A DNA stretch of 64,000 nt, taken from positions 6,159 through 70,158 of the forward strand of contig CAWIRY010000186.1 in NCBI GenBank assembly GCA_963838485.1. The letters are read 5' to 3'. A model generated the notes under the pieces. It saw only the letters and a program-made list of their open reading frames with translations, searched no databases and had not been told where the DNA came from. Shown one piece after another: positions 54,842 through 62,505 of the stretch; position 1 is the stretch's first letter; each line of letters starts with the position of its first letter. The DNA is from an uncultured delta proteobacterium. GTDB taxonomy: Bacteria; Desulfobacterota; RBG-13-43-22. The position numbers and the translations under genes were made by a program.

Positions 54842-54995
54842 CTCTCCCTTTTTTTATCGGCCACCCCCATCGGTTACATCAGCTTATCCAATCGCTTCTT
54901 GGTTTCCATGTCCTCGTTAACGGTTCGTTTGATCAGATCGGCCACCGTGAGGGTGTCTTCTCCACGATTTTTTCCGACCAGGATGTTTAAAGGCT

Positions 54996-55889
54996 TCAGG
55001 AAACCATTTCTGCAATGATGTCTTTCACCGGTCTGATGGCCTTGATCAAAGTGCTGACCTGACCGCCTCCGGCCGGGAACAGGTCGAAATCACCGCTTTG
55101 CCAGGCCTTTCCGGCATTCATCAAATTGTATTCTTTGGTCAGGTCCGCCCCTGAAGCCAAGAGTCCGGTCAATTTCGGATTGATAAGAGTTCGCATGGCC
55201 ATGCCGCCCACGGGCAGACGCACGGTTCCGGGCTCGCCGCAGCCGACAATAGCCTCCTTCCAGGCCCGAGAGGCTGGACTTTCTTCGGAGGCCAAAAAAG
55301 CCGTCCCGATCTGCACCCCCTGAGCGCCAAGGGCCAGGGCCGCCTAAAAGCCGCGTCGGTCGGCGATTCCACCGGCAGCCACTACCGGCACCTGGACCAG
55401 GTCACAGACCAGGGGGATCAGGATCAAATTGGTGGTTTCCGGTCCGGTGGTGCGAAGGCCACCTGATTCCGTTCCGGAAACGATCACGCCGTCCGCCTCC
55501 GCCTCAGCGGCCTTGGCCGCCATAGACGCGGCCAGAGTGACGTGAAGGACTTTCATCCCCAGTCCCTTGATCTTGGGATAGATTTTTTTGGGTGCCCCGG
55601 CCGAGGTGGTTACGGTGTTAACTCCAGCCTCGGCCAATATCTCCAGGATAGCCTCATTGTTGGGGTTCATGGCGATCATGAGATTAGCCCCAAAAGGTTT
55701 ATCCGTAAGGTCCTTTATCTGGGAGATCATCCGCCTGACCTTTTCCAGGTCGGTGACAAAGCCCAAAGCCAGCATGCCGAAGGCACCGGCCTCGGACACG
55801 GCGGCCACCATCTTCGGATCATTCAATTCCCCGATGGGTCCCTGAATAATGGGATATTGGCACCCTAAAATTTCCAAAAGTTTCGGCAT
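54996..55889 (-). pseudogene. Nitronate monooxygenase / FabK-like FMN TIM-barrel oxidoreductase, interrupted by an in-frame TAG as assembled
   Basis: ORF 55344..55889 ends ..VVAAGGIADRRGF*. The same frame continues AALALGAQGVQIGTAFLASEES.. (ORF 54996..55316). The TAG at 55344-55346 falls inside the conserved GGI.D.RG.AAAL.LGA.GVQ.GT motif. Confidence 0.8.
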
Positions 55890-55921
55890 AACCCATACCT
55901 CCTTTATCTGGACTTCCCCTC

Positions 55922-57019
55922 TTAAACCTGGCTGGCCTTAACGGCTTCCCGCAGGGCTTTCTGGTCAAGAGGGGGCGGTAAAATATCGGCCCTTTCAACC
56001 AGGGTAATGGCCTCAAAATCACAGCCGGTGGCACACACCCCGCATCCGATGCACCGGTCTAAATTCAATTCCGGCTTATCTTCATCTCCCATGGTTAGGG
56101 CTTCGGTGGGACACCGATCGACGCAGGTGCCGCAAGCGGTGCACAGATCGAAATCATGCCAGGGTTTAAACCCGGAATTCATCGCCAATCCGGGTTTCGG
56201 CTGGGCCAAGGCGGTTTTCAGCATCATGCAATGACAGCCGCAACAGTTGCACAGAAACTCGATCTCCTGACGATTGACGGTTGCGTGAACCAGGCCAGCC
56301 TCTTCCGTTTTATTGAGGATCTCCCGGGCCTCTTCTTTGGAAATCTGACGGCCTATTTTCCGATCAATGAGAAACTGGGCACCTATCCCGAAGGTCATAC
56401 ACACGTCATCCGGTTTTCCACAATCGTCCTTTTCATCGAGTAATTTGGCCTCATGACGGCAAAAACAGGTGGCGACCGCCAGAGGTTGGTATTTTTCAAT
56501 ATAGGAAGCCACCTGCTGATAGGTGTGGATGGTATTTTCGGCCTGAATTTTTTTATCCACGGGGATTACCCGGCTGGTCGGATAGGTCTCCTTAGGAGGC
56601 CCTTGTCCGGCATCCAGGGCCAATTTGTAGGCATGAATCAGCTTGGCGAGGTTTTTATCCCTTTCCGTTTTCGAACCCCTCATGAATTGGTATTCAAAGA
56701 TCCCGGGCACAAAAACCGGTGCGCTGTAAAAAGTGACCCCGCCCATGGAACCGGCGGTGCAAAGACCTTTATCGGCCATGGCTTCCAGAATGGGTCTTAC
56801 TTCAGCAACGGATTTGCCCATGACCTTGGCAACGGCTTCGGCGGGATTATAACCCTTGGGGATCGCATTATAGACTGCCGCCTCCTCCGGGGTAAAAAGC
56901 TCTTCAACAAGGGCATAAAATTCGGGGATATCCTTACCAGGGTATCTTCCGTGCCTTTTAGCCAAGACCTCGCATAGTTCATGATACACTTTTTCAGCCA
57001 TTTCTTTTCCCCCTATCAA
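55922..57019 (-). CDS. Cys-rich Fe-S protein with a C-terminal 2x[4Fe-4S] ferredoxin domain, function unknown
   Basis: Central CFCRHE..DDCGKPDDVC..CNCCGCHC cluster. The C-terminus carries CTACGTCVDRCP and CIGCGVCATGC. Confidence 0.7.
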   Translation of the reverse strand: MIGGKEMAEKVYHELCEVLAKRHGRYPGKDIPEFYALVEELFTPEEAAVYNAIPKGYNPAEAVAKVMGKSVAEVRPILEAMADKGLCTAGSMGGVTFYSAPVFVPGIFEYQFMRGSKTERDKNLAKLIHAYKLALDAGQGPPKETYPTSRVIPVDKKIQAENTIHTYQQVASYIEKYQPLAVATCFCRHEAKLLDEKDDCGKPDDVCMTFGIGAQFLIDRKIGRQISKEEAREILNKTEEAGLVHATVNRQEIEFLCNCCGCHCMMLKTALAQPKPGLAMNSGFKPWHDFDLCTACGTCVDRCPTEALTMGDEDKPELNLDRCIGCGVCATGCDFEAITLVERADILPPPLDQKALREAVKASQV

Positions 57020-57116
57020 AGTTTTGATTTGATCTCGGCCATGTTGGCCCGATGATTATCGATTCGGAAATATCCAGGTTAGCCGCCTGAGCACAAGACA
57101 CATCATCCTGCTGATC

Positions 57117-58139
57117 TTACTTCGGCGCCGTCCGCATCATCCCCGGCACAATCCTGACCTCTTTACGGGGATTTCGTTTGGCCTTTAATTCCGCTTTCGA
57201 TCCCGCCATGACATAAACCCGTTCCTGACGGTCCCTGAGGGGTTTCAGCACCCTTTCAACGTGTTCCTTCTTATTTTCGAGATAAACCGGTTTGACTTCT
57301 TCTCCCGCCGGACAAACGGCCATACAGTAGCTGCAGCGGTAGCTCATCCGAAACATCAGAGACTGCCACATGAAAGCCGTCTCCCGATCGTTGAAATGGG
57401 ATCGATATTCCGCCATGTCCTGCGAGGAAACCATGGCTTCCACCCAGTTCTGAAAGCCGGTCATGTTGTCCCGGTAAGTGTGGGTGATACAGGCCGAAAA
57501 ATCAAAAGGCTGGTCTTTGGTGATGGCCCCGGTCGGGCAGACCACGGCGCATAGATTGCATTTGATGCAGGGATTCTCCGTCAGCGGACGGTCGTATCGA
57601 TCCAACAGGCCATTAATCAGGATACTGTCTAATTGGATGCAACTGCCGTATTTCGGATGCAGGACGAGCCGGTTCAGGCCCATGTGCCCGAGACCGGCCT
57701 CCACGGCCATGATCTTATGGCTCACGTCCCAGATTTTCCCCGGATACCGATCCAGGTCCATGGGCCATCCCTTGTTGACCACCACCCCCCGGATTCCGAT
57801 TCGGTTCAAGCGTCGAAGAATTTCTCGCGAAAGGTCGGAAATCTTATCCCCCGTGTGATGGTATTCTTCATTGGCCACATAGCGAGCCGGGCTTTGAAGG
57901 GTTTCCCGATTATTGGTCGTAATAATGGAAATGATACTGCTGGTCAGAGAGTAAACGTGTAATATCCCCTCTCGCTCCTTTTGCAGCGGCTCCCTCTCCA
58001 TATCCACCAGTCCCACATCGTCGGCCCCGGCCTCGAGGCAGATCTTTTTGATCGCCTCCGCGGAATAAGTCCTTTTTCCCTCTCCCTCGCCAGAACCCTT
58101 CATGTCCGAACCCAAATTTTTCTTCCCTTCTGTTTTCAT
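57117..58139 (-). CDS. QueG / reductive-dehalogenase-superfamily Fe-S protein (epoxyqueuosine-reductase-like)
   Basis: ..SHKIMAVEAGLGHMGLNRLVLHPKYGSCIQL.. followed by CIKCNLCAVVCPTGAI and ..CSYCMAVCPAG.., the QueG-like layout. Overlaps the stop of the molybdoenzyme gene. Confidence 0.65.
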   Translation of the reverse strand: MKTEGKKNLGSDMKGSGEGEGKRTYSAEAIKKICLEAGADDVGLVDMEREPLQKEREGILHVYSLTSSIISIITTNNRETLQSPARYVANEEYHHTGDKISDLSREILRRLNRIGIRGVVVNKGWPMDLDRYPGKIWDVSHKIMAVEAGLGHMGLNRLVLHPKYGSCIQLDSILINGLLDRYDRPLTENPCIKCNLCAVVCPTGAITKDQPFDFSACITHTYRDNMTGFQNWVEAMVSSQDMAEYRSHFNDRETAFMWQSLMFRMSYRCSYCMAVCPAGEEVKPVYLENKKEHVERVLKPLRDRQERVYVMAGSKAELKAKRNPRKEVRIVPGMMRTAPK

Positions 58140-60370
58140 AGGGCCTCCACTCGGCAGGGTACATAGCGGTGCATCGGCGTCCCCAGGAAGTCCCGGTTGG
58201 TGTTTTTCGTCAGGCGATTCACGTTGACCCCGTGGGCCTTGCCGTCATAAACCAGTCCAAAACCATGGGGGATAGCCACGTGACCCTTGCGGGCCGTTTC
58301 GGTAACCTCCAGTTCAACCTCCAAGGAACTAGCCTCGGTGGTCACCCGGACCTGCTGACCGTCCATGAGCTTCAAGGTTTCAGCGTCGGCCGGGTGCATG
58401 GCCAGGGTGCAGGCCCTTTTGCCCGCGTTCCAGGCCGGGTCCCGCATGAGGGTGTTGGCGTTCATGGAGGTGTGGCGTCCGGCCATGAGAATCAGGGGAA
58501 ATGAGGGATCGGGCCTCAGGGCCACTTCTTCCTGCTCGGCATCGATCCCCTTGACCGTATCTATAAGCTCCGGGATATATAAATCGATCCTGCGATCTTC
58601 GGTTTGAAGATGACCGAAATTATTGTTCGGGTCCACCTGTCCGACCCAGAGGCCTTCCGGATGGTCGATAATTTTCTGAAAGATCTCCTCACCCAGACCC
58701 ATTCCCGGGGTAAAGCCTACCCGGGCGGCGTTTTCCTGAAAGGCCTTGGGCGTGGTCTGAAGGATTCCCCAGAGCGTGGCCAGATGAACGGACCCCATGC
58801 CCTTTCCCAGGGTTTTTCCGAGAATAAAGGGCAGGACCTTCAAGGCCGCCGGTTCTTTCTGTGCATAGGCCATAAGGGCCGCACCAAAGGCCGCCCGGCT
58901 TCCTTCGGCGGCCTTATAGAGACTCTCGGGGATGGGTGGGATCAGGCCCAATCGATCGGCCAGCCGAAGATGGATCTCTCCGGCTTCCAACGGCTCTCCG
59001 TCGGGTTCAATGATGGGCCTCCGCATCTGGAAAAAGATGCCCGGATAAGTAAGGGCAAAAAAGATCCCGTCCCAGGACTCAAAACCGGACCGGGCCGGAA
59101 GCACATAGTGGGACAATAAGGCCGTTTCCGTCATGGCCAGCTCGGAAGTCACCAACAGATCCAGACGCTTGAAGGCCTGTTCATAGGCCGTGGTATCCGC
59201 GTAGGAACGCAAGGGATTGGAGGCGGAGACGATGACCGCCCGCAGACGATCCGGGCGATCGGAGAGGATCTCCTCGGGCATGGCATTGGGTGGAAAGGTG
59301 GCCGAGACCGGGAATATATTGGTGGTCATGGTCCGCCAGGTCTTGGGATTCCGCTCATCGGAATGGGCGCCGGTAGGCATCAAATGGCCGGGGAAAATGG
59401 TGCCCCCGGGCACACAGATCCGCCCGCAGATGGCTTGTAAGGTCGCGGCCAGGTAGGATGAGACGGCGCTGTGGCGATTCATAAAGAGGCCGAGGTCATA
59501 ACGCAGAGTGGATTTGCGGGTGGCAAACAGACGGCTGATCTCCTGGACCTGATCGAAATCAAGGTGACAGGTCCGGACAGCCGACCGGGCATCAAAATTC
59601 GTATACAACGATTTTATGTTCTCAAACCCGGAGGTATGATTTTCGATATAGTCTTTTTTTTCCCAGCCTTCCTGGAGGATAATGGCGATCATGGCCCGAA
59701 GGAGAAGGGCATCCGTTCCCGGCCGAATCGGAAGATGCCTGTCGGCGATCTTGGCCGTTTCGGACAGGCGGGGGTCAACGACAATAAGGAGTTTATTAGG
59801 ATCCTTGGAGATACGCTGAAGGTGCCGGGGGGCCTGGGGGATCTGGTGGCTCTGCATACCGTTCCACCCTAATATCAGAAAGAGGTCCGTTTCCGCCACA
59901 TCGGGCACTCCGTGCAAATATTGTCGGCCGAACATGCGACCATGAACCCAGAACATCCCGGAAAATTCCTGGGCCAGGGCGCTGTAGTGATAATAAGAAC
60001 CAAGCCCCCTTAATAAACGGACCCCAAAGGCGGCCTCAAAATGACATCCCTGGCCGCCGCCGCCCATATAAGCAAAAGATCGGGGGCCGTACTGATCGAC
60101 GATGCCCTTGAGTTTGACGGCGATCTCACCAATGGCCTGATCCCAGGAGATACGCTCAAAACGGTCCCCCACCCGCTTCAAGGGGTATTTAAGACGATCG
60201 GCATGATGCTGATGATAAGCGACATTCATCCCTTTTCGGCAAACATACCCTTGGCTGCGGAGATTTTCCTTGTCCCCTTTAACCTTAACAATACGGTTGT
60301 TTTCGACTTCCACTTCCAGACCGCAGTTCTGGGCGCAAAGAACACAGCTTGTTTTGTGGGTTATTCCCAT
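58136..60370 (-). CDS. Cytoplasmic molybdopterin (bis-MGD) oxidoreductase with an N-terminal [4Fe-4S] motif, substrate unknown
   Basis: N-terminus HKTSCVLCAQNCGLEVEV..VCRKG (CX2CX3C..C). 744 aa, no twin-arginine signal. RBS aggagg. No in-frame TGA. Confidence 0.8.
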   Translation of the reverse strand: MGITHKTSCVLCAQNCGLEVEVENNRIVKVKGDKENLRSQGYVCRKGMNVAYHQHHADRLKYPLKRVGDRFERISWDQAIGEIAVKLKGIVDQYGPRSFAYMGGGGQGCHFEAAFGVRLLRGLGSYYHYSALAQEFSGMFWVHGRMFGRQYLHGVPDVAETDLFLILGWNGMQSHQIPQAPRHLQRISKDPNKLLIVVDPRLSETAKIADRHLPIRPGTDALLLRAMIAIILQEGWEKKDYIENHTSGFENIKSLYTNFDARSAVRTCHLDFDQVQEISRLFATRKSTLRYDLGLFMNRHSAVSSYLAATLQAICGRICVPGGTIFPGHLMPTGAHSDERNPKTWRTMTTNIFPVSATFPPNAMPEEILSDRPDRLRAVIVSASNPLRSYADTTAYEQAFKRLDLLVTSELAMTETALLSHYVLPARSGFESWDGIFFALTYPGIFFQMRRPIIEPDGEPLEAGEIHLRLADRLGLIPPIPESLYKAAEGSRAAFGAALMAYAQKEPAALKVLPFILGKTLGKGMGSVHLATLWGILQTTPKAFQENAARVGFTPGMGLGEEIFQKIIDHPEGLWVGQVDPNNNFGHLQTEDRRIDLYIPELIDTVKGIDAEQEEVALRPDPSFPLILMAGRHTSMNANTLMRDPAWNAGKRACTLAMHPADAETLKLMDGQQVRVTTEASSLEVELEVTETARKGHVAIPHGFGLVYDGKAHGVNVNRLTKNTNRDFLGTPMHRYVPCRVEAL

Positions 60371-60390
60371 ATATCCTCCTCCTGAAAAAA

Positions 60391-60813
60391 TTACCGGCTA
60401 AATTGTTCCCGCAGTTTATGAATAAGACCGCGCAACTCGCGCTTTTCATTTTCCGTAAAGGCCGCCAGGAATTCTTTGTTGGCCTCCTCGATCAGCTTCC
60501 TGGCCTCCAGTCCCGTCTCTTTCCCCTGCTTAGTCAGATGGATCTTTATGGAACGCCGATCATCGGGATTTCCCTTGCGTTCGATGAGCCCGGCCGCTTC
60601 CAAACGATCCAGAATGCCGGTCAAGGTGGCGCTGTCTAATTCAACCTTTTTCCCTAATTCACCGGCCATGATCTGATCCGCCTCGGCCAGGAATCCAAGG
60701 ACCATGGCCTGGACCGGAGTGATGCTGAGCCCCGATATCTTCTGGGTCATAAATTTTATGCCGGTCTGACTGGCTTTGGCTAATTGAAAAAAAATACAAT
60801 TATCGGATTTCAT
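60391..60813 (-). CDS. MarR-family transcriptional regulator
   Basis: 140 aa with a winged-helix pattern ..ITPVQAMVLGFLAE..MAGELGKKVELDSATLTGILDRLEAAGLIERK..DRR... Lies 20 nt upstream of the molybdoenzyme gene. Confidence 0.85.
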   Translation of the reverse strand: MKSDNCIFFQLAKASQTGIKFMTQKISGLSITPVQAMVLGFLAEADQIMAGELGKKVELDSATLTGILDRLEAAGLIERKGNPDDRRSIKIHLTKQGKETGLEARKLIEEANKEFLAAFTENEKRELRGLIHKLREQFSR

Positions 60814-60935
60814 ATTAAATCCCCATGCCCCTGTGGGGCGCTACGAAAAATGAAAATAAAACTTAGAAATAAATAGTTAAAAGTCTTTATTCTGAATTCT
60901 GACTCCTGAATTCTGACTCCTCAAATTTTATTCTC

Positions 60936-60956
60936 GTATACAATTATCTTGTACAC
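60936..60956. promoter_or_regulatory. Candidate MarR operator (imperfect palindrome)
   Basis: GTATACAA-ttatc-TTGTACAC, 7 of 8 inverted, about 120 nt upstream of the marR start. Confidence 0.3.
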
Positions 60957-61021
60957 AACACAAATAAAACTGTCAAGAAAAAAATTTGACCCATTTCACT
61001 CCTGATGGTCTTGTAAAAAGT

Positions 61022-62079: not shown

Positions 62080-62505
62080 ATGGACCATCGGGTCAAGGAA
62101 GCCCTATTTCTAAGAGTAGCCCGGGAACCGTTTGCCAAAAAATTTAAATTAAAACAGGTCGATCTGGATGAAGGTTATTCCAGAGTGACCATGACCTTTA
62201 CCCCGGATATGGAAAACATCTTCGGCATGGCCCATGGCGGGGCCATTTTCGCCTTGATCGACGAGGCCTTTCAAACGGCCTGCAACGCCTATGGCACCAT
62301 GGCCGTGGCCTTGAATATGACGATCACCTACGTTTCTTCTCCTGCACCCGGCAGCAAACTTACGGCCGAGGCCAAGGAATACAGCCGGACTGCCAAGACG
62401 GCCAATTATGATATTAAGGTCCTTGATGAACGGGGAAATCTGATCGCTTCCTGTCAGGCCTTGGCCTTTCGCAAAGGGAAACCCCTGTCCTTCCTGGAAC
62501 CTTAA
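62080..62505 (+). CDS. PaaI-family hotdog-fold acyl-CoA thioesterase
   Basis: 141 aa with ..NIFGMAHGGAIFALIDEAF.. RBS aggagg. Confidence 0.8.
   Translation: MDHRVKEALFLRVAREPFAKKFKLKQVDLDEGYSRVTMTFTPDMENIFGMAHGGAIFALIDEAFQTACNAYGTMAVALNMTITYVSSPAPGSKLTAEAKEYSRTAKTANYDIKVLDERGNLIASCQALAFRKGKPLSFLEP

Follow-up and report, generated by a model that had tools for sequence, protein, structure and literature searches.

What function could unite a molybdenum or tungsten (Mo/W) enzyme, a QueG-like iron–sulfur (Fe-S) protein, a Cys-rich Fe-S protein and a flavoenzyme behind one small regulator? The question is raised by a gene cluster on the minus strand of a 64,000-nt stretch of DNA (hereafter the window, to which all positions refer) from the 5.04-Mb genome of an uncultured delta proteobacterium. 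Five genes with short gaps follow one another in the order marR, a gene for a Mo/W enzyme of the MopB superfamily (hereafter the Mo gene), a QueG-like gene, a Cys-rich Fe-S protein gene and an NMO/FabK-like gene. An earlier note, made from the sequence alone, had described them as a MarR-led cluster combining four redox cofactor classes. We found all of these minus-strand open reading frames (ORFs) where the note had placed them (Table 1), and the genes form one MarR-led unit. We tentatively read the cluster, at a probability of about 0.45, as an inducible cytoplasmic reductase set for small organic molecules that are electrophilic, unsaturated or oxygenated.

Conservation of the gene neighbourhood

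We surveyed 79 loci, the window and 78 related loci, by ORF clustering and with our own profile hidden Markov models, using the single Mo protein as the query. The surveyed relatives (approximately 46–90% identity) were all metagenome-assembled genomes of Thermodesulfobacteriota. A MarR gene was in operon with the Mo gene in 38 of the 79 loci and a TetR gene in 7. The other families found in operon with it were the Cys-rich Fe-S protein (13 loci), the QueG-like protein (10), crotonase (ECH; 9), OYE (8), NMO (8), FmdE (6), acyl-CoA thioesterase (4) and an FMN_red-type flavoprotein (3). The Mo gene had FmdE-type accessory genes next to it in 6 to 9 loci and genes for AMP-dependent ligases nearby in 11. 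At least one redox partner was present in 26 of the 79 loci. The full gene order of the window was kept only in relatives that are at least 90% identical.

The conserved core is the regulator and the Mo enzyme, and the other genes are exchangeable partners; the set is modular and does not amount to a fixed pathway. Conservation of the neighbourhood, which the earlier note had proposed as a check, holds for the regulator–Mo pair and not for the partners. As a fixed pathway, the combination of four cofactor classes is not supported: the partners vary, form no fixed set and include in the window a broken NMO gene. The partner families also cluster elsewhere without the Mo gene, in the orders MarR-OYE-QueG-like and nitroreductase-crotonase-OYE-FmdE-QueG-like-crotonase-NMO. 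Another partner cluster has the order HxlR-QueG-like-Mo enzyme.

Operator and promoter

An imperfect palindrome upstream of marR had been put forward as a candidate operator. The palindrome, GTGTACAA-GATAA-TTGTATAC on the minus strand (60956-60936), is complementary at 7 of 8 arm positions, and a TTGACA box lies 14 nt upstream of it. An operator-type site of the form G-Y-ATACAAG-WWA-ATTG-Y-AT-R-C was found upstream of marR in 25 of the 38 related loci, where the expectation was 0.02 per region; thus, the palindrome is real and far above chance. In 23 related loci, a TTGACA box was located either 14 or 24 nt upstream of the palindrome, and these two fixed distances indicate that the site covers the −10 region or the transcription start. 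A generic sigma-70 scan called no full promoter at the operator, since the T that should end the −10 element is missing from the candidate TACAAG, and the marR promoter was assigned on the sole basis of the conserved TTGACA box. The candidate has thereby become a conserved, operator-like site with fixed promoter spacing, and its function as an operator is predicted.

The operator pattern occurred exactly twice in the 5.04-Mb genome, and a reversed control pattern gave no match there. The second copy, on contig C43 (C43:4888-4908), has the same promoter layout, and 54 nt downstream of it begins an OYE gene that is not linked to the operon. The product of this gene shares 71% identity with the OYE encoded directly next to the Mo gene in one relative (L003; Mo enzyme 90% identical). 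In the genomes of five relatives, the site was found solely at marR-Mo promoters, one per locus copy. We conclude from the distribution of the sites that the regulon in this genome would consist of the operon and the relocated OYE gene, both putatively bound by MarR.

The leader between the operator and the marR start is unusually long and contains a perfect tandem duplication of the 14-nt unit GGAGTCAGAATTCA (60893-60920, minus strand). The distance from operator to start codon is 30–40 nt in most relatives and 142–183 nt in the window and in a near relative (L075).

The OYE on C43 (L091:4962-6062; 366 aa) carries a C-terminal C-x5-C-x11-C motif (CLSDNQCF...GEGIYC), which resembles part of the [4Fe-4S] motif of the FadH/enoate-reductase type; the FAD/NAD domain is absent. 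Downstream of this gene (L091:6350-11634) are genes for a GntR/FCD regulator, a crotonase, a thiolase-like protein and another MopB protein, the last of which reads as two ORFs of 242 and 485 aa.

The MarR-family regulator

The regulator matched PF01047 at 56.2 bits (cut-off 24.6; E = 3e-15), identifying a winged-helix MarR domain. Its best NCBIfam matches were Saro_0803 and OhrR, both far below the cut-off (OhrR, 56 bits against 200); HpaR also matched. Cys6 was invariant in 37 MarR orthologues, down to approximately 30% identity. A canonical OhrR-type 1-Cys sensor was ruled out, as there is no Cys at the position of OhrR Cys15/Cys22 and the NCBIfam score is far below the cut-off.

MarR proteins with a Cys, TetR proteins and HxlR proteins are regulator types that gate responses to electrophiles and oxidants, as in OhrR, NemR-NemA and YodB. 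The locus resembles the OhrR-ohr, NemR-nemA and YodB-azoR1 regulons, as generally known, in having a small autoregulated repressor and a palindromic operator over the promoter, both predicted here. Further likenesses are the flavin-reductase targets (OYE, NMO and the FMN_red-type flavoprotein) and the invariant N-terminal Cys in helix α1 of MarR. It differs from these thiol-based stress regulons in its predicted targets, among which are Mo, QueG-like and Cys-rich Fe-S enzymes. To our knowledge, such targets occur in none of the known OhrR-, NemR- or YodB-type regulons.

The MopB enzyme

The Mo gene product contains the domains Molybdop_Fe4S4, Molybdopterin and Molydop_binding in this order (49.4, 106.8 and 67.0 bits; cut-offs 22.7, 24 and 26.8). 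By domain content and order, it is a member of the MopB/DMSO-reductase superfamily. Its [4Fe-4S] motif reads C9-x2-C12-x3-C16...C44. Because this motif starts at residue 9, the protein has no Tat or other signal peptide and is cytoplasmic. The earlier description of a 744-aa protein with an N-terminal [4Fe-4S] motif and no Tat signal was therefore borne out. A Mo/W-bis-pyranopterin cofactor is predicted, with indirect support from the FmdE-type accessory genes beside the Mo gene in relatives; cofactor-less MopB proteins exist, such as NuoG and QrcB.

Homologues of the enzyme are abundant; the best 120 were 75–93% identical, and all that were named belonged to Thermodesulfobacteriota. The best NCBIfam match was Fdh-alpha (TIGR01591), at 250.3 bits against a cut-off of 666.25, and all curated-family scores were below 40% of the cut-off. 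None of eight representatives of the wider Glu/Asp clades reached an NCBIfam cut-off, all being far below. By these scores, the enzyme falls in no clade of known function, a question that the earlier note had raised. We found no characterised member of the Glu-type MopB branch in the literature.

The note had also left the Mo ligand residue to be identified. We built a family profile from 21 members (34–81% identity to the query) and compared it with PDB entries. The best matches were FdhF of HDCR (299 bits), F420-dependent formate dehydrogenase (Fdh; 287 bits) and acetylene hydratase (Ahy; 277 bits). In three independent profile alignments, Glu135 was aligned with the Cys of HDCR FdhF, the selenocysteine (Sec) of F420-dependent Fdh and Cys141 of acetylene hydratase. 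Glu135, the Fe-S cysteines and Lys46 were invariant in the 21 members, so that a Glu occupies the Cys/Sec ligand position throughout the family. The His that follows the ligand in Fdh is not kept, being Phe136 here and Phe, Leu or Lys in the family. Asp13, the catalytic residue of acetylene hydratase next to the second Fe-S cysteine, is replaced by Ala in the 744-aa enzyme and is variable in the family. The branch is very large: when the 150 nearest clusters at 50% identity were inspected, the ligand position of their full-length proteins was Glu in 37, Asp in 60 and Cys in 2.

The enzyme is most similar to acetylene hydratase (2e7z) and FdhF-type Fdh (7qv7, 9t1s and FdhH 1aa6), which are likewise soluble, approximately 730–745 aa long and of the same domain order, have the N-terminal [4Fe-4S] motif followed by a conserved Lys, and gave the best sequence and profile matches (250–300 bits). 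It differs from them in the invariant Glu in place of Cys/Sec and in the loss of both the Fdh His and the Ahy Asp13. As assignments, Fdh was rejected on the score and on Glu135-Phe136 where Sec/Cys-His is needed, acetylene hydratase on the loss of Cys141 and Asp13, and Nas and Nap on ligand residues and scores. A carboxylate at the ligand position is shared with NarG, EbdA, PcrA and SerA, which are Asp-ligated enzymes of the DMSO-reductase family with an acidic metal ligand, and more distant relatives of the 744-aa protein have Asp there. However, those enzymes are type II, with another FS0 motif, a length of approximately 900–1200 aa, β/γ subunits, and Asp where Glu is found here. EbdA scored only approximately 39 bits with the single sequence and 108 with the family profile, compared with 160 and 299 bits for HDCR FdhF.

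The genome also encodes a paralogue on contig C113 (C113:43779-46001; L092:7777-10092, minus strand) that is 58% identical and Glu-type, with the motif ALGQEHTG. It is followed by a 245-aa Fer4_16 protein; thus, the pairing of a Mo enzyme with a QueG-like/Fer4_16 protein occurs twice in this genome.

The QueG-like protein

Similarity of the QueG-like protein to the QueG/RdhA superfamily, as proposed before, was confirmed at the profile level. Its family profile matched a PceA-type reductive dehalogenase (8q4h; E = 9e-16, profile positions 15-201), QueG (5d08; 4e-15), 4uqu (4e-13) and NpRdhA (4ras; 9e-6). Cys191, 194, 197, 201, 217, 269 and 272 were invariant, including the Cys of both cluster motifs. 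The protein is not QueG itself, as it scored 59.7 bits with TIGR00276 (cut-off 200), matching profile positions 91-210 of 337. Its RDH family score was 33.5 against a cut-off of 160. It is similar to the four structures in the profile just before and including the first Fe-S motif and in the spacing of the two Cys motifs; it differs from QueG and RdhA in having no Tat signal, no RdhB partner and no match to the QueG C-terminal domain. Since most homologues are 325–328 aa long, Met13 is a possible start.

In one relative (L117), which has a QueG-like protein 91% identical to the present one, the last gene of the operon is not NMO but a DUF1638 gene (L117:8208-8984). DUF1638 is often found with genes for corrinoid proteins.

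The Cys-rich protein

The protein with a CNCCGCHC motif and two ferredoxin-type 4Fe-4S motifs was present as the earlier note had described it. It is 365 aa long from the TTG at 57019; in the database record, the ATG at 57001 is taken as the start, for a length of 359 aa. Its middle domain contains eight conserved Cys (CxC...C...C...CxCC...C). The AlphaFold2 (AF2) model has a mean predicted local distance difference test (pLDDT) score of 90 and consists of a winged helix, the middle domain and a PorD-like 2x[4Fe-4S] domain. In a fold search with this model, the winged-helix domain (Z ~7) and the ferredoxin domain (Z ~10) were matched; no full-length match was obtained, and the middle domain (~140-275) was unmatched. 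A search of the ESM Atlas returned only unnamed 4Fe-4S clusters.

Nine further full-length or near-full-length copies, 33–59% identical, are encoded in the same genome (on C162, C121, C49, C157, C114, C208, C177, C142 and others; L105-L115), the C162 copy being split in two. Most of these paralogues had no partner gene within 1.5 kb. A copy number this high speaks for a catalytic family more than for a dedicated ferredoxin.

The closest published description is from the isr (isoprene-regulated) operon of Acetobacterium wieringae. It encodes a 350-aa ferredoxin, of which the first 270 residues are reported to match the N-terminal module of IsrA (VUZ27132.1), a putative isoprene reductase (PMC10134865). 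Like this ferredoxin, the Cys-rich protein is approximately 350 aa long, with 270 residues that lack a domain match followed by a ferredoxin domain. Its CxC motifs at 179/181 and 251/253 compare with those of IsrA at 180/182 and 254/256 (PMC10134865). Both proteins have a cluster of six or more Cys; in IsrA, a Cys6 site, possibly for nickel and otherwise an unusual Fe-S site, has been proposed at the end of the substrate tunnel (PMC10134865). In contrast to the isr operon, the Cys-rich protein here has no NfnB-like FAD/NAD module and no hypA or hypB nearby, and its partner is the Mo enzyme. HypA association of the family was not seen in this genome: HypA genes were found on C178 and C89, with a weak sub-cut-off match on C189, none of them with a Cys-rich paralogue. 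The assignment to the IsrA-front-module type, made from the published description only, is a well-matched lead.

The NMO/FabK-like gene and the operon layout

The NMO-like gene lies at the end of the cluster as the note had claimed; it is not intact. An in-frame TAG (55346-55344) interrupts it within the motif GGIADRRGF*AALALGA. The N-terminal piece met the Pfam NMO model (PF03060) at 113 bits, and the best match, FabK (TIGR03151), was obtained in two pieces (139.8 + 29.9 bits; cut-off 453). This codon, the 182nd of the gene, is CAG (Gln) in L075 and Arg in other orthologues. The closest metagenomic relative (L116), whose Mo enzyme shares 93% identity, keeps the gene order and has an intact 297-aa NMO. 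Because the orthologues have Gln or Arg and the L116 gene is intact, pyrrolysine or other recoding of the TAG was rejected, and the gene is probably decaying as a pseudogene or contains a miscalled base. In L116, a second NMO of 321 aa is encoded between the first NMO and a HIT gene. In the window, only 154 nt (54842-54995) separate the NMO gene from the HIT gene, and therefore the second NMO gene has been lost.

The spacing within the operon agrees with the earlier description: a 20-nt gap separates marR from the Mo gene, and the Mo gene overlaps the QueG-like gene by 4 nt (ATGA) if the first ATG of the latter is used. The Cys-rich gene follows the QueG-like gene after 97–115 nt, depending on the start chosen, and the NMO gene follows after 32 nt.

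Table 1 Features of the MarR-led operon in the window.
Feature	Position	Strand	Basis
TTGACA, −35-like box of the marR operon promoter	60971..60976	-	Read from the sequence; box at fixed distance in related loci
Candidate MarR operator, 21-bp imperfect palindrome GTGTACAAGATAATTGTATAC, overlapping the −10 region	60936..60956	-	Conservation across marR-Mo loci
marR, 140 aa, MarR-family regulator with invariant Cys6 in helix α1	60391..60813	-	Pfam MarR, E = 3e-15
MopB enzyme, 744 aa, N-terminal [4Fe-4S] motif, Lys46, Glu135 at the metal-ligand position	58136..60370	-	Pfam domains, profile alignments
Fe-S protein of the QueG/RdhA superfamily, 340 aa if started at the first ATG	57117..58139	-	Family-profile matches, invariant Cys motifs
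Cys-rich Fe-S protein, 359 aa: winged helix, 8-Cys middle domain, 2x[4Fe-4S] ferredoxin domain	55922..57001	-	Motifs, AF2 model, fold search
NMO/FabK-like FMN enzyme gene with in-frame TAG at 55344-55346	54996..55889	-	Pfam NMO, orthologue codons

Proposed function and alternatives

In the proposed mechanism, MarR would bind the palindrome over its own promoter and the like site before the unlinked OYE gene, keeping both units off. An inducer, most likely an electrophilic or oxidising small molecule acting at Cys6 or else an organic ligand, would release it. The proteins then induced would be a soluble Mo/W-bis-pyranopterin enzyme, in which Glu135 instead of Cys/Sec may hold the metal or set the chemistry; an Fe-S protein of the QueG/RdhA type that may depend on a corrinoid; an IsrA-front-module-type Cys-rich Fe-S protein, which might act as an electron donor or be a catalytic reductase itself; and FMN ene-reductases, namely the NMO/FabK-like enzyme (broken here) and OYE. 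Jointly, these low-potential enzymes could reduce or deoxygenate small organic compounds of an electrophilic, unsaturated or oxygenated kind, providing detoxification and an internal electron sink for a syntroph. The substrate class suggested in the earlier note, an aromatic, nitro- or halo-organic compound, is a possibility.

We favour this inducible reductase set because a conserved operator lies beside a −35 box and its second copy in the genome fronts an OYE gene, and because OYE, NMO, FMN_red-type, QueG-like and Cys-rich genes recur around the Mo gene and also cluster without it. The regulator types, a MarR with an invariant Cys, TetR and HxlR, argue for it as well. So do the Mo enzyme, which is cytoplasmic, has an invariant Fe-S motif and Lys46 and is built for electron transfer, and the alignment of Glu135 with known metal ligands in three profile alignments.

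Several points weigh against it. Of the 73 loci whose downstream DNA was long enough, 41 had none of the partner families. In pairwise alignments with Xanthomonas OhrR (2pfb) and with SarZ, their sensing Cys is aligned with Phe8, and Cys6 lies two residues N-terminal to it. The two Tyr that hold the reactive Cys of OhrR in place are presumably not kept in MarR either, as judged by hand against B. subtilis OhrR. Because of this offset and the seeming absence of the Tyr residues, thiol sensing through Cys6 is a possibility only. The MarR–operator interaction is inferred from the sites. The AF2 model of the QueG-like protein had a mean pLDDT of 52, too poor for a fold search or for a test of corrinoid binding. 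No inducer, substrate or activity of any member was found in the literature. Finally, the Mo gene has genes for crotonase (9 loci), acyl-CoA thioesterase (4 loci) and CoA ligase in its vicinity, and these speak for the metabolism of CoA thioesters more than for detoxification.

The last point leads to the main rival, a possible though doubtful one, in which the operon serves the catabolism or respiration of a single organic substrate, probably handled as a CoA thioester (e.g., of an unsaturated, hydroxylated or aromatic acid). MarR would then sense the substrate or its CoA ester like regulators of the CouR, BadR or HpaR type, the Mo enzyme would hydroxylate, dehydroxylate or hydrate it, and the flavoenzymes would reduce enoyl intermediates. 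Besides the crotonase, thioesterase and the 11 loci with AMP-dependent ligases, this is consistent with FabK, the best match of NMO, being an enoyl reductase, with the FadH and BaiCD families among the best matches of OYE, and with the MarR matches to HpaR and to Saro_0803, which we take to be a regulator of aromatic catabolism. A 4HBT thioesterase gene is also present upstream in the window (62080-62505). However, no fixed pathway genes accompany the Mo gene and the partners change between genera, the operon has no transporter or dedicated CoA ligase, the family scores are all far below the cut-offs, and the same genes are also found under HxlR and TetR.

The 41 loci without any partner family would also suit co-located but independent genes, with the Mo enzyme and its regulator self-contained (e.g., an S-oxide, N-oxide or oxyanion reductase) and the downstream genes as passengers. 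We consider this unlikely, as partners recur too often for chance and cluster together elsewhere, the paralogous Mo gene is also followed by a Fer4_16 gene, an unlinked OYE gene carries the same operator, and the genes are tightly spaced, with the 4-nt overlap and the 32-nt gap. It is very improbable that the 744-aa protein is simply a formate dehydrogenase/CO2 reductase or an acetylene hydratase. These are its best PDB profile matches and Fdh-alpha is its best NCBIfam match, but the score is 250 bits against 666, Glu invariably replaces Sec/Cys with Phe, Leu or Lys at the adjacent His, Asp13 is Ala or variable, and the genome has separate TGA-containing FDH-like genes.

A bolder and quite improbable reading can also be drawn. 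In it, the 744-aa protein would have a glutamate as metal ligand, the first Mo/W-bis-pyranopterin enzyme of this kind, and would work with a QueG/RdhA homologue of corrinoid type and an IsrA-like Cys6 module that may carry nickel. The three would make up a previously undescribed system in the cytoplasm for hydrating, deoxygenating or hydrogenating unsaturated compounds that are not activated, such as alkynes, dienes or epoxides. It would act as an organic electron sink of syntrophic bacteria, switched on by the substrate through alkylation of the MarR Cys.

The locus joins three orphan redox families in one putatively co-regulated set, namely the Glu-type MopB proteins, the QueG-like proteins that are not QueG and the IsrA-front-module Fe-S proteins. 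A carboxylate ligand within the part of the superfamily that resembles FdhF and acetylene hydratase would imply a chemistry unlike that of the Cys/Sec enzymes. The host is a syntrophic sediment bacterium, in which these enzymes would be soluble, oxygen-sensitive reductases. The predicted repressor, 21-bp operator and two-promoter regulon would make the inducer, and hence the substrate, findable. The Mo/W enzyme family is common in peat, groundwater and digester metagenomes and is highly conserved (75–93% identity) across genera of Syntrophales.

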